64,000 nt of DNA from an uncultured Planctomycetia bacterium. Lineage in GTDB: Bacteria > Omnitrophota > Gorgyraeia > 2-01-FULL-45-10 > JAHFGN01. Shown here piece by piece: positions 21,253 through 54,592 of this stretch. The notes under the pieces are model-generated. The model was not told where the DNA came from and searched no databases. It saw only the letters and a list, made by a program, of their open reading frames with translations. The stretch's first letter is position 1, and every line of letters starts with the position of its first letter. Position numbers and translations under genes: made by a program. The stretch lies in NCBI GenBank assembly GCA_964354545.1, contig CAYHAE010000005.1, positions 12,414 through 76,413 on the forward strand, written 5' to 3'.

Positions 21253-21262
21253 AGGGGAGGAT

Positions 21263-23845: not shown

Positions 23846-23859
23846 TCTTTAGGAGGGAC

Positions 23860-25795: not shown

Positions 25796-27220
25796 ATGAA
25801 ACAGTATGACAGCAAGAAGTTTACGGTCTTTTGTCTGATGATATTCGGCCGGTCAGGCTCGAAGTTCTTTCAGGGGATCCTGGATTGGCATCCTCAGATA
25901 ATATCGTTTCCCAGGAACCTCCACTTCAATAGTTTCTGGCAGAAGGTGGAGAGGCGCAAAGACGATGTCGCCTACGTGGTCGACACCTTTATCGAAGATC
26001 ATCCGCGCGCATTTTCAGGCGCGCTCTGGTATCTCTTCAATAAATATGACAGGGCAGATGAGCTTGGCACCAAGAGAGACGAGACCTTTTCGGTCGACAT
26101 GAACGCGTTCCGGCGGAATGCGCTCGAACTCCTGCAGGGTAAAGAGATGAACAGGAGAGAGGCGTTCGTCGGGCTTCACCTTGCGTACCATGCGGCGAGC
26201 GGAAGGGAACTCGCCGATAACTCGATCATCTTCTGCCACATCCACGCGATCCGGCATATAGACGAATTGAGAGCGGTCGCAGAGGATTTTCCCGACACGA
26301 GGGTCTTGATACGGACGCGGCATCCGATCGAACGCCTAAAATCCTGCGCGGCGTGGATGAAGATGCAGAACGTCTATTCCTGCGGCCAGCCGTACGAAGA
26401 GGAGATCGAAGACCTCGAGGGGACCGAGCCGATCAGGGTCCTCTTTCCCGCGCTTGATATGCGCGTCCTCACCTTTGAGCAGCTCCACTGGCATCATCGG
26501 GAGGCGATGGAGGCGTTCGTGCGCTGGGTGGGTATAGAGTGGAACGAGAGCTTGATGGTGAGCACGATCCACGGAAAGCTCTGGTGGGGGGATAGCAAAG
26601 TGTTGCGCCACGGGTCCAATCCAAAGTGGAGGCTCTATAAGCCGAAAGGATTTCTGGAGAAGAAGGATTGGCGCGTCCTCCTTGCCCTTAACGGCGAGCG
26701 GCTGAAGCAGTATGGTTATGCGAGCGCGGAAGAGGTGCGCATGGCGAGGCTGGGGCGGCTCACGCTCCTCGGGGCCCTGCTTCTTCCCACGAAATATGAA
26801 TGGACGACGCTGAAGACGATGTTCAGTCTGAGCCATTGGTGGACGGCAGTCCGCACCATCATCGACGATACCACCTCCGAGAGGAGAAGAGGTTTTGACT
26901 TTTATACCAAGAAACGGGTGAAACATCGCGATGAGGTGCTTTTGGGTATACCGGTATCGGGGATCGCGGCCGGCTATCGCGTAGCGCGGCAATTAGTGCG
27001 GCACATCTGGCTGCTCAATCCTCTCAAATGGGTCTGGTTCTGTATGAAGCGCGTCGTCATGTATTGGCAGTACGCCGAAGGGCATAGGAAGAGAAGAGAG
27101 ATCTTGCTGCCTCTGCTTCTGGAGAAGACCGCTCCTCCGGCGGCGGGCAGCGCTCCCTGCGAGAACCGGACGGGAGATCTCACAAGAGATGTTCAGCGTC
27201 TCTTAAGCGGTCGAACGTGA
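25796..27220 (+). CDS. Candidate PAPS-dependent sulfotransferase (Sulfotransfer_3-like N-domain) with C-terminal extension
   Basis: A 5'-PSB-like P-loop (FTVFCLMIFGRSGSKFFQGILDWHPQIISFP) is present. A 3'-PB-like R-x(n)-S motif (LIRTRHPIERLKS) is present. The gene sits about 16 kb downstream of cysC-sat-cysQ in the same cluster. Confidence 0.6.
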   Translation: MKQYDSKKFTVFCLMIFGRSGSKFFQGILDWHPQIISFPRNLHFNSFWQKVERRKDDVAYVVDTFIEDHPRAFSGALWYLFNKYDRADELGTKRDETFSVDMNAFRRNALELLQGKEMNRREAFVGLHLAYHAASGRELADNSIIFCHIHAIRHIDELRAVAEDFPDTRVLIRTRHPIERLKSCAAWMKMQNVYSCGQPYEEEIEDLEGTEPIRVLFPALDMRVLTFEQLHWHHREAMEAFVRWVGIEWNESLMVSTIHGKLWWGDSKVLRHGSNPKWRLYKPKGFLEKKDWRVLLALNGERLKQYGYASAEEVRMARLGRLTLLGALLLPTKYEWTTLKTMFSLSHWWTAVRTIIDDTTSERRRGFDFYTKKRVKHRDEVLLGIPVSGIAAGYRVARQLVRHIWLLNPLKWVWFCMKRVVMYWQYAEGHRKRREILLPLLLEKTAPPAAGSAPCENRTGDLTRDVQRLLSGRT

Positions 27221-27346: not shown

Positions 27347-27524
27347 CCTTAATGAAAAGCTCGCATGCTGATGGGGATATTTCCCCAAAGAAAAAAGGTG
27401 CCCCGGCCTTTAGGCCGGGGGGCTCCACAGATAGTGATTATTATTCAAATGCTCCTTTTCTATCGGTATTCGAGTGAGGAGCATCGCGGGGTTAAGACCG
27501 TACGGTTATGAACGAGGTATACCA

Positions 27525-28739
27525 ATGGCACACAGGACCACACGACGTCGGAAGCAGGCGCCCTTAAACATCCTCGTCATCGGCATGGGGATGTACGTAT
27601 GCGGCAGAGGAACGGAAACCCATGGAACGATCATGCCGGCCATTTACGAGTGGAGGAAGAAGAATGAGTTGGGAGAAGTATATGTTGCCGGGACGGGCCC
27701 TGAGGGAATAAGTATTGCGAAAGCAAAAATAGACGAGATTGAGCGCAATACGGGAGTTCATGTTCCGCTCACGTTTTATCCCGAAGGGGAGCTCTACGAT
27801 CTTCAGTGTTATAGAAGGGCTATCCGCACGATACCGAAACCGGCGTGCGCGATCGTCGTGGTGCCCGATAATTACCACAGAGAGGTAGCAGGTGAAGCGA
27901 TTGAGGGCGGGCTCCACACGCTTGTGGTGAAGCCTCTTGCGCCGACCCTCAAAGAGGTGTACGAATTGATCGAGTTGCAGCGAAAGAAGCGCGTATACTG
28001 CGCGGTTGAATTTCACAAACGTTTCGACCACGCGAATCTGAAGCTCAAGGATTCTCTGCGTGAGGGGGTTATCGGAGATCCCCTCTACTTTCTCGTGGAG
28101 TTCAGTCAGCGGAAGAGTGTCCCCGCTGAACGTTTCAGAAAATGGGTCGAGGCAACAAATATCTTTCAGTATCTCGGAATTCACTATGTCGATATTATCT
28201 ATTTTGCAACAGGTGCGAGGCCGGTCCGCGCAATGGCATTGGGGCAACGGGGGTGGCTCTATTCAAGGGGCATCGATACCTATGATTCGATAGAGGCCAT
28301 CATTGAATGGGAGATGCCCGGCGGTCAAAGATTCACTTCTTCGATCCTTACTAACTGGATCGATCCGGAGTCAACTTCTGCGATGTCCGATCAGAAGATA
28401 AAGGTAATAGGGACGAAAGGGAGGTTTGAGTCCGACCAGAAGCGGCGCGGGGTCATGATCGTGAGCGACGAGAGGGGGATAAAAGAGCCAAATCCGTATT
28501 TTTCGGCTTCATACGGCACTCCCCCTATGGTTTCATATCATGGGTATGGGATCGAAAGCATACACCAGTTCCTGAAAGACGTTATCGATATCGAGTCGGG
28601 GATTGTGACGATAGATGCGCTCGAAGATAAAAGGCCTACGTTTGCGCAGTCGATCGTGCCCACCGCAGTTATCGAGAGCGTCAATAAGAGTCTCAAGGAC
28701 GGAGGGCAATGGATAGCCATTCAAGAAGTGGAAAAGTGA
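27525..28739 (+). CDS. Gfo/Idh/MocA-like oxidoreductase (predicted dehydrogenase)
   Basis: The N-terminal dinucleotide-binding-like segment is NILVIGMGMYVCGRG. The family motif EGGLHTLVVKPLAPTLKEVYELIELQRKKRVYCAVEFHKRFD is present. The start was trimmed to the ATG at 27525, after a GAGG RBS. Confidence 0.55.
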   Translation: MAHRTTRRRKQAPLNILVIGMGMYVCGRGTETHGTIMPAIYEWRKKNELGEVYVAGTGPEGISIAKAKIDEIERNTGVHVPLTFYPEGELYDLQCYRRAIRTIPKPACAIVVVPDNYHREVAGEAIEGGLHTLVVKPLAPTLKEVYELIELQRKKRVYCAVEFHKRFDHANLKLKDSLREGVIGDPLYFLVEFSQRKSVPAERFRKWVEATNIFQYLGIHYVDIIYFATGARPVRAMALGQRGWLYSRGIDTYDSIEAIIEWEMPGGQRFTSSILTNWIDPESTSAMSDQKIKVIGTKGRFESDQKRRGVMIVSDERGIKEPNPYFSASYGTPPMVSYHGYGIESIHQFLKDVIDIESGIVTIDALEDKRPTFAQSIVPTAVIESVNKSLKDGGQWIAIQEVEK

Positions 28740-29935
28740 CGGCGAAGGAGCTTCGCGTAGAGGCCGGGGTCCTCGAGCGCTTCATAACGCGCGTGCTGCG
28801 AAAAGAGGGCGTTCGTGCTGACGTCGCGAGATATGTCGAAGAAGGGCTCGTGCAGACTTCGTTGAGAGGCGTCGATTCGCACGGCGTGCGTCTTTTTCCC
28901 CATTATATTGCCGAACTCAAGGGCGGACGGGTCAACCCTGATCCGGAATATAGGTTCCGTAAAACATCATATTCAACCGGAATACTTGATGCTGATCATA
29001 CCTTTGGGCATGCGGCAGGCATGGAGGCCGCGAAGCGCGCGATCGGCCTCGCACGTAAGGCAGGGACAGGTCACGTTGCGGTATGCAACTCAAATCACTT
29101 TGGCGCAGCTGCCTGCTATGCGCTGGAGATCGCGCGGCATGACATGATCGGCATGAGTTTCACGAACACCGATGCCCTGGTAAAGACCTACGCGGGGAAA
29201 AGGCCGTTTATGGGGAATAACCCGATATGTTTCGCCGCACCCTGCAAAGGCGAGGAACCTTTTTGTCTCGATATGGCAACGAGCGTCACCACCTTCAACA
29301 GGATCAGGCAGCTGAGGGATGAGAGACGGCCTGCGCCGGAAGGGGTCGGGGCAAATCGGGAAGGCATTGAAACAACCAACCCGGATGATATCACCATGCT
29401 TTTGCCGATCGGAGGCTATAAGGGGTACGGCCTCAGCATGGCCGTTGAGGTCCTGTGCAGTCTTCTCACCGGGATGCCCTATGGACCGCATATCCCCAAG
29501 ATGTTCGAGGCGCCCATGAGCGCACATAGATTTCTCGGGCATTTCGTCATTGCGATGAGGATCGACCGGTTCCACGATAAAGAGGCGTTCAAGGAGCGGC
29601 TTTCGCAGATGGTGCATGAATTGAGGAGTGAGCCGCGCCTGGATAAGAGGACACCCGTACAGGTAGCGGGTGATCCTGAAAAGAGGAGCGCTGTCGAGAG
29701 GAAGAAAAAAGGGATCCCTTTTACCCTGCGGGAGTTCAAGGCATTCAAGGAGTTGAGCCGTGAATACGGAGTCGGATTTGACCTGCGCCCCGGACCCGCG
29801 TTGCGTTCCGCTTCACGGGATGGCGTGGGTTCCCTGCCTGGACGCCGGGGGAGGCGCTCTATGGAGCCCGAAGAGGGAAATCGCGGCCGTAAGATCACGG
29901 AGCTTCATCTTATGCGCGCGAGAGGTAATCGATGA
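28709..29935 (+). CDS. Ldh_2-family (malate/L-lactate/sulfolactate dehydrogenase family 2) NAD(P)H-dependent oxidoreductase
   Basis: The Ldh_2 signature is RGVDSHGVRLFPHYIAELKGGRVNP...HFGAAACYA. A GGAGGG RBS precedes the ATG at 28709; an alternative GTG is at 28736. The C-terminal 50 aa are an Arg/Gly-rich low-complexity tail. Confidence 0.65.
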   Translation: MDSHSRSGKVTAKELRVEAGVLERFITRVLRKEGVRADVARYVEEGLVQTSLRGVDSHGVRLFPHYIAELKGGRVNPDPEYRFRKTSYSTGILDADHTFGHAAGMEAAKRAIGLARKAGTGHVAVCNSNHFGAAACYALEIARHDMIGMSFTNTDALVKTYAGKRPFMGNNPICFAAPCKGEEPFCLDMATSVTTFNRIRQLRDERRPAPEGVGANREGIETTNPDDITMLLPIGGYKGYGLSMAVEVLCSLLTGMPYGPHIPKMFEAPMSAHRFLGHFVIAMRIDRFHDKEAFKERLSQMVHELRSEPRLDKRTPVQVAGDPEKRSAVERKKKGIPFTLREFKAFKELSREYGVGFDLRPGPALRSASRDGVGSLPGRRGRRSMEPEEGNRGRKITELHLMRARGNR

Positions 29936-31635
29936 AGGATGATGGGCGCACCGACATACTGATAATCATTCCGCCGGCAGGGACGACAAATACCGTCTTT
30001 CCTCCCTATGGCGCGATGTATGTAGCGAGCGCCCTGCGGGAAAAGGGTTATTGCCCGAAAATATTGAATGTCGATACCGGGCGGATCGCTGATCACGAGG
30101 TGATCGAGCGGATCAGGAGGGAAAATCCCCGCTACATCGGTTTCAGCGGTATAGTCGCCCCCTCCTATAGGTACATCAAAGAGCTGAGCCTGGAGCTGAA
30201 GGATGCCTTTCCCGATCGGATCCAGATCCTTGGCGGCGGTCTCTCAAGTGCTGCGGAAACGGTGCTTGCGAATACGGCTGTCGATATTGTCGTATACGGC
30301 GAAGGCGACCTGACCGCCGGAGAGCTCATGGATTGCCTGGAACGCAAGGGGGACTTGAGCAGCGTCCCCGGAATATATTACAGGTCCGGCACCGATATCT
30401 GTTACACCGGCGAGAGGGAATTAGTGCGGGACCTCGATGCCCTGCCGTATCCGGCGTTCGACCTTGTCGATATGGACCGGTATCTCCCCAACGGCGTGGA
30501 GTTGATCCACCGCCACACCAGGAACGTCAACGACAGGCGGATATACGATAGAAGACGGAAGCGAAAGATGATGACGCTCCTCGCGGGCAGGGGGTGTTTC
30601 GGAAGATGCAGTTTTTGCTTCAGGGCATATCCCGGGATACGCTTTCACTCGATGCGGTATGTCTTCGACCTCATCGAATACTGCGCGGATAGATTCGACG
30701 CCGGATTCTTCTCGTTCGGAGATGAGTGTTTCACGGCGAATAAGGCGCGCCATTGGGAGTTCATCAATGAGTACAGGCGCCGGAAGATGGACTTTGTCTT
30801 TCGGATCCAGGGCGCACGGGTCGACACGTTCGACAGGGATATTCTGCGCGCGTACAAGGAGATCGGGTGCTGGATGATAGAGTACGGGTTCGAATCGGGA
30901 AGCCAAAAGATGCTTAACATCATTGATAAGCGCGTTACGGTCGAACAAAATCGGCGCGTTGCCCTCTGGACACGCGAGGCGGGCATTCATACGTCGCCGA
31001 CGCTGGTGCTCGCGATGCCCGGCGAGGACGATAAGACGATACAGGAGTCGATAGAGTTCCTGAAGTCCCTCGATTTCTGTTTCAAGCAGTACCAGTGGAC
31101 GTTTGCGCTCCCCATAGCAGGATCGCCGCTCTACGAATACGCGCGCCTGGTCGGGGCGATCATCGATGAGGATGAATACCTTTCGTCGATCGCGGGCGAG
31201 GTCGGTGCCGCCGGCGTATTTCACGTGAACCTGACCTCGTGCTCGGATGAGGCGGTGGTTTCGTGGCCCGAGAGGATAACGCGCGAAGTCGACGCGCATT
31301 ATTTTCGCACACACTATCGTCACGCGTGGCATGCGCGATGCGCGAAGATCGCAGCGCTTATCGACATTCATATAAAGCGACGGGATCTCCTCACGGTCCT
31401 CGCGAAGAAGGCGGGTTCGCTCCTCGCTCGCGCAGGCGCATCGTCTCCAAAGACGCGTGTCGTCCGGTATAGGGCGCGGGACGAATATAGGACCGGGGAA
31501 CTCTTCAAGCCTCACTGCTCGGCATCGGTTGACCCTGCGGGGGCGCTTGCCCTCGTCAATAAGCGCCTCCGGGAAGGATCGCTCGTTCGCGTTTCCGGTC
31601 ATCCGTACGGCGGGCCCGCCGGAAAGGATATATGA
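29932..31635 (+). CDS. Cobalamin (B12)-binding radical SAM enzyme
   Basis: The B12-binding N-domain is ILIIIPPAGTTNTVFPPYGAMYVASALREKGY. The radical SAM motif is LLAGRGCFGRCSFCFR. There is an ATGA overlap with the upstream gene. Confidence 0.85.
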   Translation: MKDDGRTDILIIIPPAGTTNTVFPPYGAMYVASALREKGYCPKILNVDTGRIADHEVIERIRRENPRYIGFSGIVAPSYRYIKELSLELKDAFPDRIQILGGGLSSAAETVLANTAVDIVVYGEGDLTAGELMDCLERKGDLSSVPGIYYRSGTDICYTGERELVRDLDALPYPAFDLVDMDRYLPNGVELIHRHTRNVNDRRIYDRRRKRKMMTLLAGRGCFGRCSFCFRAYPGIRFHSMRYVFDLIEYCADRFDAGFFSFGDECFTANKARHWEFINEYRRRKMDFVFRIQGARVDTFDRDILRAYKEIGCWMIEYGFESGSQKMLNIIDKRVTVEQNRRVALWTREAGIHTSPTLVLAMPGEDDKTIQESIEFLKSLDFCFKQYQWTFALPIAGSPLYEYARLVGAIIDEDEYLSSIAGEVGAAGVFHVNLTSCSDEAVVSWPERITREVDAHYFRTHYRHAWHARCAKIAALIDIHIKRRDLLTVLAKKAGSLLARAGASSPKTRVVRYRARDEYRTGELFKPHCSASVDPAGALALVNKRLREGSLVRVSGHPYGGPAGKDI

Positions 31636-32771
31636 TAGCATGGATCGTGCTCATACTCATCGTGCTCTGCGCGGTCATTGAATCGCTCTCATATGCGATC
31701 TACCGTACGAACAGGAATGTGCGGGAGATCGCGAGGGATATGCTTGGCAAAAAGAGGCCCCCCAGCAGCGACATCGAGACCTTCATGCTCAGATACGCGG
31801 AACATCCTTTTCTCGGCTATGCGCTTAACCCCGAATTCAGGAATTCGTTCGGAGAGGCGATCCACAACACATGCGGGTTCCGGTTCGAAGGGGATCTCTA
31901 CAACCTTGACGGAACGGTGGTCTATTGCGCCGGAGACAGTTCGACCTATTGCAACGGGATCGAGAGAAATAAGGATACGTGGCCGGCACTTCTCCAGAAC
32001 GCCCTGCGTACCCACCCTTCTTACAAAGAAGCGGTGGTGGTAAACGGCGGATGCGGGGCATGGACGAGTTTTCAGAGCCTCATTCGTTTCTTGACATGGG
32101 TCGATGTCATCAGGCCCCAGCTCGTCATCGTGTATCATGGAAAGACCGATTTCATACCATTCATGGCGGGCGATGCATCTGTCCGGAAGATATTCCCCGA
32201 CTACAGCAATATCATGTGTTCGCTGAGGATGGGTGCCCTCGCGCGCGCGTGGGGGGCGCTGGCGAGGTTCTCATATGCCGGGAAGATCGCCTACGGTGCC
32301 TACGTGAACACTGCGTACGAGAACATCCATTGGAAAGTGCTTCGGCAGAAGAAGGCAAAGCTTCCCAATGAGATCCGCAAGGGGTTGCGGCGCGTGACGC
32401 CGGAAGCGTTTGATTTTATCTTCTCGAGGTACCGTTCGTTCGTGGATGCATGCGTTGCGCGGAAGATACCCATCCTGCTGGTCACTCAAAGAGTGGCGAG
32501 CGTCCTCTATCGGCCCTATATGAGCGAGCTCAATGACCGGATCAGGTCGCTTGCCTGTGCACCGGAAGGGGTCTACGTGTACGATTTCGACCGCGAGGCC
32601 TCGGGCGCAGATAGGTTCCTTTTCGACAGTGTCCACTTCACGCACGAAGGTGTGCGTTTCTTCAGCGAACGGCTGAGGGATTTCATATGTTCTCAGATCA
32701 TCCCTCCCTTACGCGGAAAGGCGCGAGAGACATCCGAGGTGCTCGCGCAGGGGAGAGGAGGGACGGTGTGA
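31632..32771 (+). CDS. Membrane-anchored SGNH/GDSL-family hydrolase (candidate glycan O-acyl esterase/transferase)
   Basis: An N-terminal transmembrane helix (MIAWIVLILIVLCAVIESL) is present. SGNH block I is VVYCAGDSSTY. Block V is the DxxH in FDSVHFTHEG. Confidence 0.5.
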   Translation: MIAWIVLILIVLCAVIESLSYAIYRTNRNVREIARDMLGKKRPPSSDIETFMLRYAEHPFLGYALNPEFRNSFGEAIHNTCGFRFEGDLYNLDGTVVYCAGDSSTYCNGIERNKDTWPALLQNALRTHPSYKEAVVVNGGCGAWTSFQSLIRFLTWVDVIRPQLVIVYHGKTDFIPFMAGDASVRKIFPDYSNIMCSLRMGALARAWGALARFSYAGKIAYGAYVNTAYENIHWKVLRQKKAKLPNEIRKGLRRVTPEAFDFIFSRYRSFVDACVARKIPILLVTQRVASVLYRPYMSELNDRIRSLACAPEGVYVYDFDREASGADRFLFDSVHFTHEGVRFFSERLRDFICSQIIPPLRGKARETSEVLAQGRGGTV

Positions 32772-33577
32772 TGAGCAGGCTGCGGCGCGCATGGCGCATG
32801 ATCGCAATGGTACCCGCGCGTATGGGGTCGACAAGGCTTACGATAAAGAACCTCGCCCTCCTCAACGGGAAGCCGCTCATCTATTACGCGATAAAGGCAT
32901 CGAAGGATTCGGGCGTATTCGAACGCATCGTGATCAATTCGGAGCATCCGCTCTTCGCAAAGATCGCGAGGCGTTACGGGGTCGAGTTCTACAGGAGGCC
33001 GGACGAGTGGGCGACGTCGGACGCGAAGTCGGATTCCGTCGTATACGATTTTCTCACGAAGAACCCTTGCGATATCGTCGCGTGGGTGAACCCGACCTCG
33101 CCCCTCCAGACAGGCGAAGAGGTGAGGCGCGTCGTGGAGTACTTCCGGGAGGAAAAACTCGATTCTCTCATCACGGTGAAGGACGAACAGGTCCACTGCA
33201 TGTATAGGGGGAGGCCCGTGAACTTCCGCATGGATGAGGAGTTCGCGAAGACCCAGGACCTGAGCCCCGTCCACCCGTTCGTCTACTCGGTGATGATGTG
33301 GCGGTCCCGGCCCTTCATGCGGGAATTCGAGAAGAAGGGCCGCGCGCTCTTCTGCGGGAAGTTCGGCGTATACTCTGTGAGCAGGCTCACGGGCATCATC
33401 ATCAAGCGCGAAGAGGACCTTATGCTGGCGGATTATATCATGCGGGCCGCGGCGCGGGGAAAGAGATATAAGGTGCGCTATGACAGGCTCGTGAAAGACT
33501 ATAGACCACAGACTATAGACCATAGACCGAAGACCATAGACCAGAGACAAACGGCTGGCGCGAAGGGACAGCGATGA
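32771..33577 (+). CDS. Acylneuraminate cytidylyltransferase-family protein (second CMP-sugar synthetase-like gene)
   Basis: The CTP_transf_3 signature MIAMVPARMGSTRLTIKNLALLNGKPLIYYAI is present. The ATG at 32771 overlaps the upstream TGA, after a GGAGG RBS. The C-terminus is encoded by a short tandem DNA repeat. Confidence 0.7.
   Translation: MSRLRRAWRMIAMVPARMGSTRLTIKNLALLNGKPLIYYAIKASKDSGVFERIVINSEHPLFAKIARRYGVEFYRRPDEWATSDAKSDSVVYDFLTKNPCDIVAWVNPTSPLQTGEEVRRVVEYFREEKLDSLITVKDEQVHCMYRGRPVNFRMDEEFAKTQDLSPVHPFVYSVMMWRSRPFMREFEKKGRALFCGKFGVYSVSRLTGIIIKREEDLMLADYIMRAAARGKRYKVRYDRLVKDYRPQTIDHRPKTIDQRQTAGAKGQR
33495..33550. repeat. Short tandem repeat (ATAGACC[A] x4-5) inside the 3' end of a CDS and upstream of the next start
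   Basis: The sequence GACTATAGACCACAGACTATAGACCATAGACCGAAGACCATAGACCAGAGAC encodes a DYRPQTIDHRPKTIDQRQT tail. It lies 25-80 bp upstream of the ATG at 33574. Confidence 0.5.
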
Positions 33578-34941
33578 AAGATCTTGTATCGATTATCATC
33601 CGCACCAAGAACGAAGAGCGATGGATCGCCCAGTGCCTCCAGAGCGTCCTCGGCCAGGAGTATAAGAAGTTCGAGGTGATCATCGTCGATAATCAATCGA
33701 CGGACAAGACCGTTGAGAAGGCGAAGACGTTCCCTATCTCGAAGGTCGTGACGTGCGGCGAGTACTTGCCCGGGAAGGCGCTCAATATGGGGATAAGGGA
33801 GTCGAGAGGGGACTACATCGCGATACTCTCGGGCCACTGTATCCCTGTCAATAAGCTGTGGCTCACCAATCTGCTCAGGAACTTCAATGGGGGCAGCGTT
33901 GCAGGGGTCTATGGCCGACAGGAGCCGATGGAATTCACCTCAGACGCAGACAAGCGGGACCTCGCGCTCGTCTTCAGCCTTGACAGGAAGGTCCAGCTGA
34001 AGGACAGTTTTTTTCACAATGCCAACAGCATGATCCGCAGGGACATTTGGCAGGAGACACCGTTCAATGAGACTGTCACGAACATCGAGGACAGGGTGTG
34101 GGCCAAAGAGGTGCTCGAGAAAGGGGCCCAGATCGTCTATGAACCCGAGGCGAGCGTTTACCACTACCACGGCATACACCAGAACGGCGATGAGGAGAGG
34201 TGCAGGAACGTGGTGAGGATCCTCGAGAGCCTCCACGCCGACTATCAATATAAGACCATCGACGCCGAAAAATTGAATACGGTCGCCTTCATTCCTGTAA
34301 AGGGGCCTATCAGGTACCTGAACGAGAAGCCGCTCGTCGCGTACACGATCGAGACCGCCCGCGAGTCGAAGTACATCAAGAAGATAATCGTCTCGACCGA
34401 CAACGCGGAACTCGCCGCGCTCGCGAGAGAGCTCGGGGCAGAGGCCCCGTTCATCCGGGAGCCCGCTCTTTCCAGTGAGAAGGTAAATCTCGCTCAGGTG
34501 CTCCAGTACTCGCTTCATAGGATCGAGGAGCTCAAGGTGTTCCCGGACCTCGTCGTATCGCTTGAGGTCACGTTCCCGTTCAGGCCGAAGGGGCTTTTGG
34601 ACAGGATGATCGCGCACCTCGCGGAAGGAGGCTTCGACAGCGTCGTCGCGGCGCGGTTGGAGAACAGGGCCATATGGAAAGAGAGGGAAGGGGCTATCGT
34701 CCAGATCGACGAAGGCCTCACGCCTCGCCAGTTCAAAGAGCCGACCTACATCGAGCTGAAAGGGGTCGGTTGCGTGACACATCCCGAATTCCTCCGGCAG
34801 GGGACGCTCCTCGGGGAGAAGATAGGGCTCTACGAGGTGGACGATCCCTATTCGCACCTCGAGGTGAGGAGCAAAGAGGATTTTTCGATGGCGTCGTTTT
34901 TGATGAAGGAGTGGGCACAAGAGCGATGGATGTCTTTATAG
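33574..34941 (+). CDS. Bifunctional fusion: GT2 glycosyltransferase N-domain plus acylneuraminate cytidylyltransferase-like C-domain
   Basis: The N-terminal GT2 signature is VSIIIRTKNEERWIAQCLQSVLGQEYKKFEVIIVDNQSTDKT. A DxD-like region is present. The C-terminal CTP_transf_3 region is VAFIPVKGPIRYLNEKPLVAYTIETARESKYIKKIIVSTDNAE. Confidence 0.7.
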   Translation: MKDLVSIIIRTKNEERWIAQCLQSVLGQEYKKFEVIIVDNQSTDKTVEKAKTFPISKVVTCGEYLPGKALNMGIRESRGDYIAILSGHCIPVNKLWLTNLLRNFNGGSVAGVYGRQEPMEFTSDADKRDLALVFSLDRKVQLKDSFFHNANSMIRRDIWQETPFNETVTNIEDRVWAKEVLEKGAQIVYEPEASVYHYHGIHQNGDEERCRNVVRILESLHADYQYKTIDAEKLNTVAFIPVKGPIRYLNEKPLVAYTIETARESKYIKKIIVSTDNAELAALARELGAEAPFIREPALSSEKVNLAQVLQYSLHRIEELKVFPDLVVSLEVTFPFRPKGLLDRMIAHLAEGGFDSVVAARLENRAIWKEREGAIVQIDEGLTPRQFKEPTYIELKGVGCVTHPEFLRQGTLLGEKIGLYEVDDPYSHLEVRSKEDFSMASFLMKEWAQERWMSL

Positions 34942-35927
34942 GCCGAGAGTTTTCACGCTATTACGAGAAAGCGCCTCTTACGCTCGTCGACATAGGGGCG
35001 CGAGGCGGCATAGAGAAGAATTGGAGGAGGGCGCGGCAGAACCTCTGCGTGATAGGTTTTGAGCCCGACACGCAGGAGTGTGAGAAGCTTGCTCTCGCAG
35101 CCGGCAGAGGCGCGAGGCGCTATCTGAACTCAGCGCTCTATAAAAGTAAGGGGACCGTCGAATTTCACCATACGAGAGCCGGCGGCGCCTCATCGATATT
35201 CAGGCCGAACAGGGATTTTGTCGATCGATTTCCCGAGTCGAGCCGCCTCGATATTGTCGGGACGGTCGCCGTCGAGGCCGATACGTTGGACAACCAGCTT
35301 CGCTCTCACGGCATCAGGGACGTCGATTTCGTCAAAGTAGATACCCAGGGCAGCGAGCTGTACGTACTGCAGGGCGGGCGCGATATCATATGCGGCTCCG
35401 TATTCGGAATGGAGATCGAGGTCGAATTTGCCCCTGTCTACGAAGGGCAGCCTTTATTCTCTGACGTCGATGCCCTCGTGAGGGGGTGCGGGTTTTCGCT
35501 CTTTGACCTCAAACCATATTATTGGAAGAGAGGCGCGGGGCAGTCGTACGGCAGGCCTAAAGGGCAGATCATCTTCGCGGACGCCCTCTATCTGAGGGAT
35601 ACGGACAGCCTGCACCGCATGCTCGGCCCTCTCCAGGGAGACAGTTCGAAAAAAGCGAAGATCGCAAGGGCGATCTCGATATGCGCTATCTATGGGTATC
35701 TGGATTATGCGCTCGAGATCTTTACGTCGGAGAAAGACCTTTTTACCCGCGAAGAGCAGAGTTCGTTCATGAAGGCGCTCGAGAAGGACGTTTCGCTCTC
35801 GCGGAAGATCCCGGATTTTCGCGGAAGAGGGCATATCGCGAACTGCATCCATTCATTGTACAGGCTCATACATCCCTCCGGGAGGAGCTGGCATTCGAGC
35901 GGAAGGGCTCTCGGTAATGTGGAATAG
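34926..35927 (+). CDS. FkbM-family SAM-dependent methyltransferase
   Basis: The FkbM motif LVDIGARGGIEKNW is present. The ORF-track start at 34674, in a frame overlapping the upstream gene, was trimmed to the ATG at 34926. Confidence 0.7.
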   Translation: MDVFIGREFSRYYEKAPLTLVDIGARGGIEKNWRRARQNLCVIGFEPDTQECEKLALAAGRGARRYLNSALYKSKGTVEFHHTRAGGASSIFRPNRDFVDRFPESSRLDIVGTVAVEADTLDNQLRSHGIRDVDFVKVDTQGSELYVLQGGRDIICGSVFGMEIEVEFAPVYEGQPLFSDVDALVRGCGFSLFDLKPYYWKRGAGQSYGRPKGQIIFADALYLRDTDSLHRMLGPLQGDSSKKAKIARAISICAIYGYLDYALEIFTSEKDLFTREEQSSFMKALEKDVSLSRKIPDFRGRGHIANCIHSLYRLIHPSGRSWHSSGRALGNVE

Positions 35928-35945: not shown

Positions 35946-37850
35946 ATGAAGGTAAATAAGATAGTCTTTTTCAACACGATACAGGATGCGGACGCATACC
36001 TCATGAAGGTAGGCTCTCGTGTTCCTGAGGACTGCCTCCTCGTTGCGTTGACGCCATCTGTACGGGCGCACCTGAAGAAGAAGGGAATCGCTGCGCAGGA
36101 CACCGCGTCTTATTTCACGAATGACTCGCACAAGGAGCTTTTGGAAAAGACGAAGAACGCGGTGGACTGGATGAGGACCAAGGCCGCGTTCGCCGACCTT
36201 GGCCTCGGTGTCCGGCGCGCGTATGGCGATGCGTTCGTCTATTGCACGCGGCGCGTCATTACCTATTGCCTGTGGGTGACGGAGGTCGTTTCACACGCGG
36301 TCGCGGCGCACCGCGCCGACGTGCTCGTCGCGGCCCGTTCCGGCGCGAGGCCCGTCGCGAGCCTCTACGTGGAGCCTGACGAGCGCTATGTGGGCGAGAT
36401 CGTGTACGAGATCGCGCTCGCAAAGGGTCTCGGATTTGAGGAGATCTCCGAAGGAGGCGGCCGACGCGCAATGCGGCCGTGGACAAGGGCTCTCGGCCGG
36501 CTCCGGTTCCGTTCGTGCGCGTCATTCATTGTACGGTATGTGAGATTCCGGCTGTGGGCGCTTGGGATACAGGCGCAGAGCGCATTCACGCGAAAGAGGC
36601 CCGCGTTCTATACCACACGTCTCTACCAGATGGACAGGCTCGCAGGAAGGATCCAGGGTGAATATGAGGGGGGACGGCTGCGCCTTTTGAGAAGTTCCGC
36701 CATACCCTCTTTTCCGATCCCCCACGGCCTGTTGCGGGCCCTGTTTCCAAAGTTTGCGGAGGCGATCATCTCGCAGAAAAAAGTCCTCGAACTCATCGAA
36801 CGTGAGATGTGCGGGAATGCGGAGCTCTTCTCCCACAAGGGCATTTCTTACGGGCGCCTCGTCTCACAGAAGATACGCAATAACCTTGCGGACCACGTGA
36901 TCGGGATGAATGTGTGGACGATCGCACTCGGCCGTTTCATCGATGCGATACGTCCGCGCTCTATCCTCTCGAACGGGACGAGGGACGACGACGTCATCAT
37001 CGCCGAGCTCTGCCGCGAGAAGAAGATCCCCGCCGTCCTCATCAGCCACGGGTCTCATATCCGGCCGAAGAACGAATATGAGACGATAGAGTGGGGTGAG
37101 CACGGGAGGCTGCTCCTGAGAGGCCCCTTTTCGCACTTTGTATTGCAGACCCCCGTTTCAGAAGGGTATCTCGAGACATTTCCCACGTCCGGTTCAATTG
37201 TAAAGACCGGCCCTCTCATTTGGGGTAAACCCATCAACCGGGAAAGGAGCAAGGCGCTCTTTACGACGATGTTCGGCACTTACAAAGAAGTGAAGATCAT
37301 CGTTCACGCAGGCACGCCGAAACCGAATAACGCTCTCCGTTTCTATGTCTACGAGACGTCGGACGAGTATATCCGCGCGGTGTGTGACCTCGCCGATGTC
37401 GCTGCGAAGGTCCCTAACACCATTCTTATAGTCAAATTCAGGCCAACGGCCGACATCTCCGTAGAGGGAATGCAGGCGCTCGTTCCTTTTCGAGACAACG
37501 TGAGGCTGAGCGTGGGAGAGCCGTTCCTCGACGTCCTTGGGATGGCAGACCTGCTCGTGAGCTTCTCATCAACGACGATCGAGGAGGCGCTCCAAAACCG
37601 GATCCCCGTATTGCTCTATGGCGGAGACGGGAGGTATCAACACATATCTGCTCAGGTGATCGAACCTGGAAGCGATGTGCGGCCGTCTGCGGTGTACCAG
37701 AGCAGAAAGAAAGAAGATCTCGAGTATGCGCTGCGCAGTATCGTGCAGTTGAATATCGACGGCAGGAACAGGGATAGACACCTCTTCGAGCCGTATATCT
37801 ACCCCGAGAGCGCGCGCAGGCCGTTGGCAGACGCTTTGACCCGCGCGTGA
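35946..37850 (+). CDS. Large hypothetical protein (634 aa); C-terminal motif reminiscent of TagB/TagF-type (CDP-alcohol) glycero/glycosylphosphotransferases
   Basis: The C-terminal segment is VLGMADLLVSFSSTTIEEALQNRIPVLLYG (compare LITDYSS in TagF-like enzymes). No other family is assignable. The start has an AAGGGA RBS. Confidence 0.45.
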   Translation: MKVNKIVFFNTIQDADAYLMKVGSRVPEDCLLVALTPSVRAHLKKKGIAAQDTASYFTNDSHKELLEKTKNAVDWMRTKAAFADLGLGVRRAYGDAFVYCTRRVITYCLWVTEVVSHAVAAHRADVLVAARSGARPVASLYVEPDERYVGEIVYEIALAKGLGFEEISEGGGRRAMRPWTRALGRLRFRSCASFIVRYVRFRLWALGIQAQSAFTRKRPAFYTTRLYQMDRLAGRIQGEYEGGRLRLLRSSAIPSFPIPHGLLRALFPKFAEAIISQKKVLELIEREMCGNAELFSHKGISYGRLVSQKIRNNLADHVIGMNVWTIALGRFIDAIRPRSILSNGTRDDDVIIAELCREKKIPAVLISHGSHIRPKNEYETIEWGEHGRLLLRGPFSHFVLQTPVSEGYLETFPTSGSIVKTGPLIWGKPINRERSKALFTTMFGTYKEVKIIVHAGTPKPNNALRFYVYETSDEYIRAVCDLADVAAKVPNTILIVKFRPTADISVEGMQALVPFRDNVRLSVGEPFLDVLGMADLLVSFSSTTIEEALQNRIPVLLYGGDGRYQHISAQVIEPGSDVRPSAVYQSRKKEDLEYALRSIVQLNIDGRNRDRHLFEPYIYPESARRPLADALTRA

Positions 37851-37869: not shown

Positions 37870-39687
37870 ATGAAAAAAAATACGACATTTCCCACAGTGT
37901 GGTTCTTCCTGAAACAGTACCGGGCCATGTACGCCATCATCCTCTTCGTACTGCTCGCAGACGCGCTCTTTGAGAACATGACCATCGCGGTGCTCCTGCC
38001 GCTCCTGCAGTCGTTCCTCGGCCAGACGAGCGGTCTCACGCGGGGAGGCCTCTTCGCGTTTATCGCGAACCTCATCGGGCGCCTCCCCTTCGGCGACCCC
38101 GTCATCAGCACATGTATCCTCGCCCTCGTGCTCGTGGCCGCGAAGGAGGCGCTCGCGTTCATCCGCGAGGTCCTCGTGTCCGGGTACAGCGTGGCGAAGG
38201 TGATGAGCGATGCGAAATTGAAGGTCTTCGAGAAGTATGCCCGTTCCGATTACCAGTTCTTCCTCGACAGTAAACAGGGCGCGCTTGTCTACAATGCGCT
38301 CGTCGCGACCGCGCGGCTCGGGAACTGCCTGCTCTACATACCGCAGCTGGCGACCGCGCTATTGCTGATACTGTCGATCGGCATCGTGCTCATGGCCATA
38401 TCGGTGCGTCTCACGCTCATGCTGCTTGTCGTGGGACTTGTCTATAGCGTGGCCACCCACGTGCTTGCGAAGAAGGTGTCATACGGCATGGGCAAAGAGA
38501 AGACAGAGGCGAGCACTGACTCGCAGGTGATCACCAACGAGTTTATCGACGGGATCAAGCAGATCAGGACCTCCGGGACATCGAATTTCTGGCTTGCCCG
38601 TTTCAGAGGGCCTGTCAAGAGGTTAGAGAGGGTCTTTATCAGGAATGCGGCCTTGGTGGCCGCTCCCGGAAGGGTGATGGAGCTCATGCCGGTCGTATTC
38701 CTGGTGGGCATCACGCTCGTCCTGAGATACTGGAGCAAGGTATCCTCCGAAGGGATCCTGTCCAATCTCGCGGTCATCGGCGTGTACGCATTCGCCCTCT
38801 ACAGGCTCGTGCCGCACCTTACCTCCCTCGGACGGTTGAGGATGCAGATTATGGAGACCTTGCCTGACGTCGAGCTCCTCCATGTCCTTCTTCAGAAGAA
38901 GACCGCCAGTATCGCATACGGCGAAAGAGAGCTGCGTAACCTTGAAAGGGAGATACGATTCGAAGGCGTGACCTTCGGTTATAAGGGGAAGAAGGATGTC
39001 TTAAAAGACGTGAGTTTCGCGATCGAAAAAGGTGCCACCGCAGCGCTCGTGGGAGAGTCCGGGGTCGGGAAATCCACGATCGTGAACCTCCTTATGAGAT
39101 TGTTTGACCCTGACAGCGGGAGGATCACCATCGACGGCACAGACTTAAAGGACCTCACGTACGACACGCTCACGAGGATGATCGCGGTCGTGAGCCAGGA
39201 GACGTTCATATTCAACGGTACCGTCAGGGAGAACATCGCCTTCGGGGCGCACGACGTGCCGCCAGGCGACGTCGTTGCCGCGGCCACGCTCGCGTACGCG
39301 GATGAGTTCATAAGGCTCCTTCCTCAAGGGTACGAAACGATCGTTGGCGACAAGGGGTTGAAGCTTTCCGGAGGCCAGAGGCAGCGCATCGCGATCGCCC
39401 GTGCAATACTTCGCGATCCGCAGGTGCTCATCCTCGACGAGGCGACGAGCTCCCTGGACCACAACTCGGAACTCATCGTCCAGAGCGCGATCAACAATAT
39501 ATCGAGAGACAGGACGACGCTCGTGATCGCCCACAGGCTTTCGACAGTGATGAGCGCCGACAAGATCGTCGTGCTCCACGGCGGCCGGATCGTCGAAGAA
39601 GGGACGCACGGTGAACTGATGGGAAAGAGCAGTGTCTATAAGGGCCTCTACGAAGATCAGACGGTCGGGGCGGGGAGAGAGGGTTAA
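37870..39687 (+). CDS. ABC exporter, fused transmembrane and ATP-binding domains (MsbA-like lipid/glycan exporter type)
   Basis: A six-helix N-terminal transmembrane domain is present. Walker A is GESGVGKST. The signature is LSGGQRQRIAIARAIL. Walker B is ILILDEATSSLD. Confidence 0.85.
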   Translation: MKKNTTFPTVWFFLKQYRAMYAIILFVLLADALFENMTIAVLLPLLQSFLGQTSGLTRGGLFAFIANLIGRLPFGDPVISTCILALVLVAAKEALAFIREVLVSGYSVAKVMSDAKLKVFEKYARSDYQFFLDSKQGALVYNALVATARLGNCLLYIPQLATALLLILSIGIVLMAISVRLTLMLLVVGLVYSVATHVLAKKVSYGMGKEKTEASTDSQVITNEFIDGIKQIRTSGTSNFWLARFRGPVKRLERVFIRNAALVAAPGRVMELMPVVFLVGITLVLRYWSKVSSEGILSNLAVIGVYAFALYRLVPHLTSLGRLRMQIMETLPDVELLHVLLQKKTASIAYGERELRNLEREIRFEGVTFGYKGKKDVLKDVSFAIEKGATAALVGESGVGKSTIVNLLMRLFDPDSGRITIDGTDLKDLTYDTLTRMIAVVSQETFIFNGTVRENIAFGAHDVPPGDVVAAATLAYADEFIRLLPQGYETIVGDKGLKLSGGQRQRIAIARAILRDPQVLILDEATSSLDHNSELIVQSAINNISRDRTTLVIAHRLSTVMSADKIVVLHGGRIVEEGTHGELMGKSSVYKGLYEDQTVGAGREG

Positions 39688-39805: not shown

Positions 39806-40573
39806 ATGGATCTAAAGACAAGGCTCAAGGCAGGCGGGGTGACGATAGGTTCCTGGGTCACGCTTTACCATACATCCATCGCGGAGATAATGGCAAAGGC
39901 AGGATTTGATTGGCTCACGGTGGATATGGAGCACTCCTCGATAACGCTCGATCAGGCCCAGCATCTCATACAGGTGATAGAGCTTTCAGGCATCGCGCCC
40001 CTGGTGCGCGTTGGCGAGAATGACGCCGCGCTCATAAAGAGGGTGATGGACTCGGGCGCACACGGCGTCATCGTCCCTATGGTGAATACGAAGGACGATG
40101 CCCTGAGGGCCGTCTCTTCGGTGAGGTACCCTCCGCGGGGCACGCGGGGGGTAGGGCTTGCGAGGGCCCAGGGCTATGGGTTCGAGTTCCAGAAGTACAA
40201 GACATGGGCGAATAAGGGAACCATCCTCATCGTCCAAATAGAACACATCAACGCGGTGGAGAACCTCGATGAAATACTGGCGGTTGACGGCGTCGATGGC
40301 TTTATCGTGGGACCCTACGACCTCTCGGGTTCCATGGGAGTCCCGGGAGAGCTGGGGCACCCAAAAGTAAGGAGCGCTCTCAAAAGGATAATGACGGTCG
40401 CGAGACGCCATAAGGCGGTGCCGGGATTTCACATCGTCCCTCCCGATCCCGCACTCGCGGCGGAGAAGATAAGGGAAGGTTACCGTTTCCTCGGGCTTAG
40501 CTTCGACGCGTACTTTTTGGGAACGATGTGCAGGGAAGGGCTCTCCATGATAAGGAAGAAGGTGAGGAGATGA
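39806..40573 (+). CDS. HpcH/HpaI-family class II pyruvate aldolase
   Basis: The family N-terminus LKAGGVTIGSWVTLYHTSIAEIMAKAGFDWLTVDMEHS is present, with the catalytic Arg context RYPPRGTRGVG. An AGGAGA RBS precedes the start. Confidence 0.8.
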   Translation: MDLKTRLKAGGVTIGSWVTLYHTSIAEIMAKAGFDWLTVDMEHSSITLDQAQHLIQVIELSGIAPLVRVGENDAALIKRVMDSGAHGVIVPMVNTKDDALRAVSSVRYPPRGTRGVGLARAQGYGFEFQKYKTWANKGTILIVQIEHINAVENLDEILAVDGVDGFIVGPYDLSGSMGVPGELGHPKVRSALKRIMTVARRHKAVPGFHIVPPDPALAAEKIREGYRFLGLSFDAYFLGTMCREGLSMIRKKVRR

Positions 40574-54584: not shown

Positions 54585-54592
54585 GATAAAAG

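Follow-up and report, generated by a model that had tools for sequence, protein, structure and literature searches.

A family 2 glycosyltransferase fused to a degenerate NeuA-like domain and encoded within a conserved four-gene module

In the Bacillus subtilis sps locus, a family 2 glycosyltransferase (GT2), SpsA, and a CTP_transf_3-type protein, SpsF, are encoded together with genes for nonulosonic acid (NulO) biosynthesis. In the present study we examined a 455-amino-acid protein that carries both kinds of domain in a single chain, and which is encoded in a stretch of 64,000 nucleotides (the window) of contig CAYHAE010000005.1, from an uncultured Planctomycetia bacterium that is placed in the Omnitrophota by GTDB. 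Unlike the two halves of this fusion, SpsA, which has a metal-binding motif, and SpsF, which is regarded as an active synthetase, are made as separate proteins; in addition, SpsA has been shown not to be the legionaminic acid transferase, and the authors of that study think it more likely that it adds a monosaccharide to the growing glycan (PMC7439481). The C-domain of the fusion resembles the CMP (cytidine monophosphate)-nonulosonate synthetases NeuA, PseF and LegF (1EYR, 6IFD, 9FTB/9FTC and 1QWJ) in its fold, its STD motif, its equivalents of R71 and R110 (numbering of the Neisseria meningitidis enzyme, NmNeuA) and its dimerization subdomain, but differs from them in having no CTP (cytidine triphosphate)-binding loop, in the replacement of Gln104 by Glu and of Asp-x-Asp by Glu-x-Arg, in its position behind a GT2 domain and in its fast evolution. 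The N-domain, in turn, resembles the inverting GT-A enzymes of GT2 (SpsA, GalT1/CgT 5HEA, PcManGT 6YV7 and WrtF 9OMH) in its fold, its match to PF00535 and the motifs VDNxSxD and NANSxxRR...EDRxW, whereas the fusion has S-G/A-H-C at the position of the DxD motif, an invariant YHYHGIHQ segment, a C-terminal NeuA-like domain and no membrane segment.

Two GT-A-like domains per chain are also found in the tandem GT-A proteins K4CP (2Z86) and PmHS2 (8VH7), which are both bifunctional polymerases, and in COLGALT1 (9EVJ), although the second domain of these proteins is a glycosyltransferase, whereas that of the fusion is a nucleotidyltransferase derivative, and the arrangement of the domains differs (root-mean-square deviation, rmsd, ~21 Å). 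One GT-A domain of COLGALT1 is non-catalytic, which provides a precedent for a non-catalytic second domain. Finally, Escherichia coli K1 NeuA consists of a synthetase and an esterase, and the animal CMP-sialic acid synthetase (CMAS) of a synthetase and an inactive phosphatase-like domain, such that in sialic acid pathways too a CTP_transf_3 domain is joined to a second domain, in one case a pseudoenzyme; the synthetase is active in these proteins, whereas in the fusion the synthetase is degenerate and its partner is a glycosyltransferase. Both domain superfamilies of the fusion are already well known, and what appears to be new is a GT2 domain fused to a degenerate NeuA-like domain and its occurrence in a four-gene module. 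Our literature searches returned no description of such a fusion, nor of the module, and in PMC7371886 an SpsF-like domain is mentioned only in fusion with an aldo-keto reductase.

The fusion gene and its two parts are placed as follows in the window.

33574-34941, forward strand: GT2/NeuA-like fusion gene, 455 amino acids plus stop, with an ATG start (open reading frame, Pfam domains, full-length homologues and AlphaFold2 (AF2) model).
33574-34218, forward strand: N-domain, residues 1-215, a GT2 domain of GT-A fold and the presumed catalytic domain.
34279-34938, forward strand: C-domain, residues 236-455, a degenerate cytidylyltransferase that has the whole CMP-nonulosonate-synthetase fold.

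The two-domain architecture that a preliminary description of this DNA had given for the protein was confirmed, both Pfam domains being recognized above their curated cut-offs: Glycos_transf_2 (PF00535) at residues 6-159 (E=1.2e-28, 100.5 bits against 23.3) and CTP_transf_3 (PF02348) at residues 245-358 (E=8.4e-12, 45.8 bits against 22.6), the latter spanning only profile positions 17-123 of 217. An AF2 model of the whole chain, built from a 62-sequence alignment, had a pLDDT (predicted local distance difference test) of 95.6 and a pTM (predicted template modelling score) of 0.80. Whole-chain Foldseek matches in the PDB consisted only of the tandem GT-A proteins K4CP, PmHS2 and COLGALT1, at the large rmsd given above, and there is therefore no solved structure with the domain arrangement of the fusion. 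The ATG of the fusion gene overlaps the stop of the gene at 32771-33577 by 4 nt (ATGA) and its 3' end overlaps the start of an FkbM methyltransferase gene at 34926 by 16 nt; with overlaps at both ends, the genes are packed as in an operon. Homologues across assemblies and phyla have a conserved linker and similar lengths, and one confident AF2 model spans both domains. The fusion is thus a single conserved polypeptide, a point that we regard as settled.

The C-domain has the complete fold of a CMP-nonulosonate synthetase. Foldseek searches against the PDB matched it to 6ifd (Vibrio cholerae), 1eyr (N. meningitidis) and 1qwj (mouse) with TM (template modelling) scores of 0.80-0.87 over 217-231 aligned columns (~225 residues) at ~20% identity, the dimerization subdomain included, and its best sequence match was the PseF of Aeromonas caviae (E=6e-11). 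The C-domain was then compared residue by residue in a MAFFT alignment with 1EYR, 9FTB, 6IFD, 1QWJ and the canonical paralogue encoded at 18800 in the window. The STD motif and the cytosine- and substrate-side residues are kept: the counterpart of R71, the cytosine-contacting Arg, is R295 (Arg in 199 of 239 full-length family members), that of R110 is R337 (Arg in 204 of 239), and the equivalents of T106 and P108 are Thr in 144 and Pro in 175 of these members respectively. In contrast, an 8-residue deletion at P241-V-K-G-P-I (approximately nt 34294-34311) takes out GSKGxPxK of the loop P-A-R-G-G-S-K-G-x-P-x-K-N, and with it S15, K16 and K21 of NmNeuA, so that the N-terminal CTP-binding loop P-A-R-x-x-S-x-x-x-x-x-K (R12, S15 and K21 of NmNeuA) was not found in the C-domain. 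The loop columns are gaps in 202-232 of the 239 members, and a search for the canonical-loop pattern in 319 members gave two matches, both spurious and at unrelated positions; one basic loop residue, K or R in P-V-K/R-G, remains in the family. Furthermore, Q104 of NmNeuA is replaced by E331 (LEVTFPFR versus LQPTSPLR), and the Mg-binding acidic pair D209-x-D211 was likewise not found in the C-domain, its place being taken by E430-V-R432 (nt 34861-34869), with E-[VI]-R in 13 of 16 representative loci that cover both of the module types described below.

According to published mutagenesis and structures, catalysis by NmNeuA depends on K21 and the Asp pair. The C-domain therefore lacks catalytic residues and very probably cannot act as a canonical cytidylyltransferase, and the loss of both the CTP-binding loop and the Mg-binding Asp pair makes it very probable that it produces no CMP-sugar. 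It also fell short of an equivalog-level score, with 66.6 bits against a cut-off of 205.7 for the PseF model TIGR03584 and 19-22 bits for the KdsB models. Competence as a bifunctional enzyme was thus not found in the fusion, the N-domain appearing competent by sequence and the C-domain lacking two defining catalytic elements. The preliminary description had proposed an activation-transfer fusion and had named a C-domain without catalytic residues as the observation that would speak against it; this is what the deleted CTP-binding loop and the change from DxD to ExR amount to, and that proposal is left unsupported, whereas its second suggestion, that a CTP_transf_3 domain has been recruited for acceptor or donor binding, is the best fit to the evidence.

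The N-domain is presumed to be a glycosyltransferase and the catalytic part of the fusion. Its GT-A fold was backed by Foldseek matches to the GT2 structures 6yv7, 5hea, 9jn3, 5tzi and entries beginning with 9om, the named enzymes among the matches being PcManGT, CgT, WrtF, AvpGT and TarS, and the family alignment of 62 sequences has 22 invariant columns, none of which lies outside this domain. D39 in VDNxSxD, the nucleotide-binding Asp after strand 2, is invariant in these 62 diverse members, as is E172 of the acceptor-side 'ED' (catalytic base) motif E172-D173, in which D173 is at least 90% conserved, and the acceptor-side motifs FHNANSxxRR...IEDRxWA are intact. The DxD metal-binding motif, on the other hand, was not found in the N-domain; S86-G87-H88-C89 stands at that position (S-G-H at nt 33829-33837), as illustrated by the alignment to GalT1, in which ILSGHC of the fusion lies opposite FVDSDD, and the family consensus is S-[GA]-H-C with H88 invariant. 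The His-rich segment Y196-H197-Y198-H199-G200 (in Y-H-Y-H-G-I-H-Q) comes after the last strand of the domain, and H88, H197 and H199 are invariant or nearly so. As each domain fails one or two of the motifs that define its family, it would be wrong to classify the fusion as either a CMP-NulO synthetase or a bifunctional enzyme.

We also found a stand-alone GT2 of 292 amino acids in Gloeothece verrucosa (WP_013334580.1, on plasmid NC_014533.1, locus L087 8968-9846), which shares the S-A-H, YGKQ, NANS, EDRxW and YH.H motifs with the N-domain of the fusion. The exopolysaccharide cluster that encodes it also contains ABC transporters as well as GT1, GT4 and pyruvyl-transferase genes, and there is no cytidylyltransferase gene among the annotated genes near it. 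As this stand-alone GT2 is not accompanied by CMP-sugar genes, S-x-H marks a wider GT2 subtype and is no signature of CMP-sugar use. A search of plasmids for relatives of the fusion returned only N-domain-only proteins, at 32-38% identity.

The family is broad. A word-indexed search with the fusion gave 3755 matches at E<=1e-5, and the best 120 of these (the query's own sequence aside) were all 445-471 amino acids long, 66-88% identical and equipped with both Pfam domains; an exhaustive HMMER search among representatives of 50%-identity clusters found 490 of them at E<=1e-30, the best 150 of which were nearly all full-length two-domain proteins, down to 32% identity. In a scan of one genome per species, relatives were encoded by 460 genomes from more than 15 phyla, the closest being from Omnitrophota and 72% identical. 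The carriers include Omnitrophota, Planctomycetota (Brocadiaceae and Scalindua), Thermodesulfovibrionales, many Desulfobacterota, SAR324, Margulisbacteria and Saganbacteria, candidate phyla radiation (CPR) bacteria (Uhrbacteria, Vogelbacteria and Saccharibacteria), Cyanobacteria including Prochlorococcus, Pelagibacteraceae, Legionellaceae, Bacteriovoracaceae, Acidobacteriota, Gemmatimonadales and Elusimicrobia. The fusion is thus not the unusual oddity for which it was originally taken, and is conserved in related genomes by both measures, the 490 cluster representatives and the 460 species-level genomes. In the databases the homologues, thousands in number, go by generic names, among them 'glycosyltransferase', 'rhamnosyltransferase' and 'CMP-N-acetylneuraminic acid synthetase'.

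The two domains have evolved at very different rates, distant members having 44-62% identity with the window protein in the N-domain versus 16-25% in the C-domain, which diverges two to three times faster. Across the 62-sequence alignment we found no invariant column in the C-domain, and in the most distant members CTP_transf_3 is no longer seen by Pfam, although hhalign still aligns the region. Among members that are at least 50% identical, C-domain identity is 38-67%, similar to that of the bona fide enzymes of the module, and close homologues share some 50 invariant C-domain columns, many of which are charged. Conservation within close groups together with divergence between distant ones indicates that the C-domain is functional, with a constraint that shifts from lineage to lineage. 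Such a pattern would be expected of a specificity or recognition domain, and the asymmetry between the domains fits a constant donor chemistry combined with a variable recognized ligand.

To describe the neighbourhood of the fusion, all window proteins were compared by tblastn with 86 related loci, and counts were made on the 46 of these that are flanked on each side by 8 kb or more; a second count was derived from an independent clustering of all open reading frames in 43 loci, and agreed with the tblastn picture. Besides the fusion gene, the core of the module in the window consists of the following genes.

27474-28739, forward strand: GFO/IDH/MocA-type oxidoreductase, core (Pfam; 36 of 46 related loci, median identity 53%).
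28709-29935, forward strand: Ldh_2 family 2-hydroxy/2-oxo-acid dehydrogenase, core (Pfam, E=1.1e-103; 34 of 46 loci, median identity 56%).
32771-33577, forward strand: atypical stand-alone CTP_transf_3 cytidylyltransferase, the presumed activating enzyme of the module (Pfam and homologue motifs).

A cytidylyltransferase gene of the 32771 type was found on the same strand as the fusion in 35 of the 46 loci (median identity 58%), and the GFO, Ldh_2 and 32771-type genes accompany the fusion on the same strand within ~1-6 kb. The window itself holds the complete four-gene module (27474, 28709, 32771 and 33574) on one strand within about 6 kb, its partner genes each being present in 34-36 of the 46 loci, and a stand-alone CTP_transf_3 gene lies within 10 kb of the fusion in 41 of the 43 loci of the second count. 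The supply of a putative cytidylyltransferase in trans, translationally coupled to the fusion in the window, can therefore be regarded as settled. The PDB sequence matches of the GFO and Ldh_2 proteins were generic, those of the Ldh_2 protein being malate, sulfolactate and ureidoglycolate dehydrogenases, and no NCBIfam equivalog was found for the GFO, Ldh_2, B12-binding radical SAM (S-adenosylmethionine), fusion or 32771 proteins. Judged from the chemistry of their families only, the GFO protein would convert an aldose into an aldonate and the Ldh_2 protein this aldonate into a 2-keto-aldonate, and the pair appears to be an alternative to synthases that condense PEP (phosphoenolpyruvate).

The presumed activating enzyme is itself atypical. 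It matches the CTP_transf_3 profile at positions 1-124 only and keeps IPARMGSTRLTIKN and NPTSP, with I-I-K at the DxD position; in 47 homologues, the CTP loop IPARxGSTRLxxKN and NPTSP are conserved, and so is I-I-I-K-R where DxD would be expected. Members of this family are typically 245 amino acids long and are named 'hypothetical protein' by NCBI, and we presume the window protein to be an atypical putative cytidylyltransferase. Its C-terminal tail of ~25 residues (33490-33574) contains a short peptide repeat (RPQTIDHRPKTIDQRQ), and the ~245-amino-acid homologues have no such tail. On its upstream side the gene is abutted by a GDSL/SGNH hydrolase gene (31632-32771), which was found in 3 of the 46 related loci and recalls the synthetase-esterase pairing in E. 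coli K1 NeuA.

Ten loci have neither GFO nor Ldh_2 of this kind, and six of these carry DAHP_synth_1 (KdsA/DAHPS-type) and two NeuB. Their cytidylyltransferase, where identified, is canonical and NeuA-like, and they carry another GFO together with, in some cases, KduI/IolB, a xylose-isomerase-like TIM barrel and a shikimate-dehydrogenase-like gene; in Prochlorococcus, for instance, the operon reads CTP3-fusion-GFO-DAHPS.

L079 9938-14940, L070 7440-12056, and loci L047, L074, L078 and L081: second (DAHP_synth_1) module type, from Prochlorococcus, SAR324, Elusimicrobia and Acidobacteriota.

This second module type hints at a sugar of the heptulosonic or octulosonic acid type. NeuB was rejected as an obligatory neighbour of the fusion, being present in 14 of 46 loci by tblastn and in 13-14 of 43-46 loci over the two counts. 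The occurrence of GFO/Ldh_2 loci alongside DAHP_synth_1 and NeuB loci therefore ties the fusion to 2-ulosonic acids generally, and not to NeuB-type nonulosonic acids.

Taking these data together, we tentatively propose, at somewhat less than an even chance, that the GT2 domain adds a sugar from an NDP (nucleoside diphosphate)-sugar while the dead synthetase domain presents an ulosonate-bearing acceptor. According to this model, the C-domain descends from a CMP-nonulosonate synthetase of the NeuA/PseF type, of which it has kept the fold, the dimerization subdomain and the cytosine-contacting Arg. The GFO- and Ldh_2-type dehydrogenases would make an acidic 2-ulosonic sugar by way of the aldonate and 2-keto-aldonate, and the translationally coupled 32771 cytidylyltransferase would activate it in trans; the dead synthetase domain would bind the ulosonic acid (free, CMP-linked or on a glycan) and offer it as an acceptor to the GT2 domain, which would then transfer an ordinary NDP-sugar. 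What we show is the domain architecture and how widely it is conserved, which residues have been lost, the fold, and the genes around the fusion; we infer ligand binding by the C-domain (of a cytidine nucleotide and/or ulosonic acid), because its pocket residues are kept, together with the identity of the sugar and the assignment of donor and acceptor; the C-domain probably also dimerizes the enzyme, because its dimerization subdomain is kept. We favour an ulosonate acceptor because the N-domain is constant across modules that must make different acids while the C-domain tracks the acids, and because the S-x-H subtype of GT2 also occurs outside a CMP-sugar context.

Several observations weigh against this proposal. 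The core module has no glycosyltransferase besides the fusion, and the fusion could therefore itself transfer the ulosonate, with CMP-ulosonate as its donor and not as an acceptor; for a monophosphate donor, the absence of DxD would be fitting. The charged C-domain residues that are invariant in close homologues (D276, R295, E331, R337, D355, R385, K388, R408, E430 and R432) look like an active site and not a mere binding surface. The 32771-type enzyme, too, has no DxD, and that it is active is therefore an assumption. Two MAFFT runs (L-INS-i versus automatic) gave different registers for the DxD/ExR alignment; the one used here is the gapless L-INS-i register, which agrees with the strand-loop-helix boundaries of the AF2 model. 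Finally, literature searches gave no biochemical characterization of any member of the fusion family.

If the ulosonate is the donor, the fusion would represent a new class of ulosonic acid transferase, a view that we consider doubtful and that comes in two versions. In the first, a GT2 without DxD would take CMP-ulosonate from its own NeuA-derived domain; in the second, the synthetase fold would serve as a second transferase head, giving a two-headed polymerase like K4CP or PmHS2 that would make an alternating ulosonate/hexose polymer for the adjacent ABC exporter. The first version would make it the first CMP-sugar-dependent GT2, with built-in channelling from the coupled synthetase, and in either version GFO and Ldh_2 would represent a way to a CMP-activated 2-keto sugar acid that does not depend on PEP.

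Spelled out as a specific mechanism, in which the GT2 domain uses a CMP-ulosonate donor (with no diphosphate to chelate and hence no DxD) and the NeuA-like domain captures the labile CMP-ulosonate and hands it over, possibly by channelling in a heterodimer with the 32771 synthetase, this alternative is the main rival of our proposal, but seems to us rather unlikely. It would account for the fusion being the only glycosyltransferase in the conserved core of both module types, for S-G/A-H at the DxD position and the invariant or nearly invariant H88, H197 and H199, for the retention of the cytosine-contacting Arg and the dimerization subdomain, and for the translational coupling to 32771. However, no GT2 member in CAZy is known to use a CMP-sugar, S-A-H is also found in the stand-alone GT2 of Gloeothece, with no cytidylyltransferase annotated nearby, the N-domain is constant across modules that must make different ulosonic acids while the C-domain varies, and a protein of predicted GT-B fold is encoded next door in 27 of 43 loci.

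It is improbable, in our view, that the C-domain is a pure pseudoenzyme scaffold that binds no ligand and only dimerizes or stabilizes the GT2 domain. Such a role would agree with the lack of any family-wide invariant C-domain column, with distant members that are beyond recognition by Pfam, with the kept dimerization subdomain and with the presence of COLGALT1 among the whole-chain fold matches, and it has precedents in animal CMAS, with its inactive phosphatase-like domain, and in COLGALT1, one GT-A domain of which is non-catalytic. Yet the pocket residues equivalent to R71, R110, T106 and P108 are kept in 60-85% of the 239 members, ~50 C-domain columns, many of them charged, are invariant in close homologues, and genes for an ulosonate and a cytidylyltransferase are almost always alongside, a company that a generic scaffold would not need.

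Less probable by far is a true bifunctional activation-transfer enzyme, in which a shortened loop and a non-canonical metal site would still allow the C-domain to make the CMP-sugar that the GT2 domain transfers. The complete fold, the survival of the STD motif and of LExTFPFR (resembling LQPTSPLR), the one basic loop residue left in P-V-K/R-G and the purifying selection on the C-domain could be read in this way, but the loop with the essential Lys (K21 of NmNeuA) is deleted and no true canonical loop was found in 319 members, Arg stands in place of one Mg-binding Asp, the score with the PseF model is far under the cut-off, and 41 of 43 loci have an intact stand-alone cytidylyltransferase gene besides the fusion. 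A sequencing or assembly artefact, in which two genes had been joined by a frameshift, was raised in the preliminary description and can be dismissed with near certainty, since full-length homologues number in the thousands and come independently from many assemblies and phyla; we found nothing in its favour.

We then compared the C-domain with the other CTP_transf_3 proteins of the window, which, in addition to the 32771 gene, are the following.

18800-19567, forward strand: canonical CMP-nonulosonate synthetase with PARGGSKGLPGKN, LQPTSPLR and SDIDT, part of the legionaminic (Leg)-type NulO set at 10.1-21 kb.
40528/40570-41355, forward strand: KdsB-subfamily cytidylyltransferase (NF009905, 291.8 bits against a cut-off of 255).
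39806-40573 and 40570-41355, forward strand: HpcH/HpaI-type pyruvate aldolase and the same KdsB-subfamily cytidylyltransferase, overlapping by 4 nt, a separate conserved pair.

Pfam and NCBIfam confirmed that there are four such domains, with the stand-alone genes at 18800 and 32771 and the KdsB-like gene at 40570 where they had previously been placed. The 18800 protein matches CTP_transf_3 at full length and is PseF-like, although its 176.7 bits are under the equivalog cut-off of 205.7. It is also the closest paralogue of the fusion C-domain, with 33% identity over 208 residues (91 bits) by BLASTP, and the KdsB-like gene is less close; the C-domain is not a sister of the adjacent 32771 gene, with which it has 22% identity against the 33% with 18800. 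The HpcH/KdsB-like pair is present in 8-9 other loci, always adjacent, and seems to provide a further CMP-activated 2-keto-3-deoxy acid by way of an aldolase. The window therefore has three pairings of a synthase set with a cytidylyltransferase, namely Leg-type NeuB/NeuC with 18800, GFO and Ldh_2 with 32771, and HpcH aldolase with the KdsB-like enzyme. Because these pairings are separate, the locus very probably makes several CMP-activated acidic sugars, as the count of four domains had originally suggested.

Other genes close to the module are accessory or specific to this locus, as follows.

29932-31635, forward strand: B12-binding radical SAM enzyme, frequent accessory (Pfam; 24 of 46 loci).
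34926-35927, forward strand: FkbM-family methyltransferase between the fusion and the GT-B gene, locus-specific (2 of 46 related loci).
35946-37850, forward strand: 634-amino-acid protein of predicted GT-B fold, a candidate second glycosyltransferase (AF2 and Foldseek).
37870-39687, forward strand: fused TMD-NBD (transmembrane domain-nucleotide-binding domain) ABC exporter, HepA/MsbA/PglK-like, frequent accessory (18 of 46 loci).

Most Kdo and sialyl transferases known so far have a GT-B fold. The 634-amino-acid protein has no match in Pfam and no sequence match in the PDB, and its homologues are all named 'hypothetical', whereas its AF2 model (pLDDT 92.9, pTM 0.93) shows a GT-B fold with long helical insertions and was matched by Foldseek to NeuC/WecB epimerases, VldE and the Cps3D capsule polymerase. 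On the basis of this model, the protein is plausibly a second glycosyltransferase and its family appears to be an unnamed glycosyltransferase-like one. Members were found in 22 of 46 loci by tblastn and lie directly downstream of the fusion in about half of the related loci; as a universal partner of the fusion the family was rejected, since even after one iteration with a hidden Markov model it was present in 27 of 43 loci, and the protein is therefore accessory and not a core gene.

Nearly all genes of the window are on the forward strand and form one large surface-glycan island. It contains a legionaminic-type set, consisting of a 4,6-dehydratase at 10140, DegT, a PglD-like protein, NeuB, NeuC, a WbuX amidotransferase, a PtmE-like CBS-nucleotidyltransferase and the 18800 synthetase, as well as further GT2 genes, a PMT_2 protein and nucleotide-sugar epimerases. 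Genes for the supply of PAPS (3'-phosphoadenosine 5'-phosphosulfate) are found at 7534-10156 and 25796-27220 (APS (adenosine 5'-phosphosulfate) kinase, ATP sulfurylase and a CysQ-like phosphatase), and, because a Sulfotransfer_3 protein is encoded in the same island, they suggest that the island glycan is sulfated. There are four B12-binding radical SAM genes (262-1761, 2393-3940, 29932-31635 and 54593-56011), whose products may C-methylate sugars and whose relatives recur in 22-24 related loci, and two radical SAM/SPASM genes (21224-22219 and 22240-23298). Two further large proteins, of 672 (23698-25716) and 665 (46166-48163) amino acids, have no match in Pfam or NCBIfam; the family of the former recurs upstream of the module in 13-14 related loci, and BLASTP shows no similarity between it and the 634-amino-acid protein, which are thus not paralogues. 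The segment at 54000-56000, over the B12-binding radical SAM gene 54593-56011, has a G+C content of 0.44 versus 0.50-0.59 elsewhere and may have been acquired recently. A search with Rfam gave no match anywhere in the window.

For annotation, these data mean that neither 'CMP-N-acetylneuraminic acid synthetase' nor 'bifunctional enzyme' is an appropriate name for proteins of the fusion family. In the pathways of sialic-acid-like and Kdo-like sugars, the transfer step is the least well understood, and many gene clusters lack a transferase for it. The family described here is abundant and strongly conserved in very distant phyla; the module is found in SAR11 and the fusion itself in Prochlorococcus too, both of them dominant bacteria of the sea, as well as in anammox bacteria, Omnitrophota and the CPR. 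The four-gene cassette probably makes a new CMP-activated sugar acid. If the dead synthetase domain is indeed a module for recognizing or handing over a sugar, it would be an example of an activating enzyme that has been recycled as a specificity domain, and the breadth and conservation of the family, together with its link to a CMP-activated sugar-acid pathway, make it a good target for experiments.

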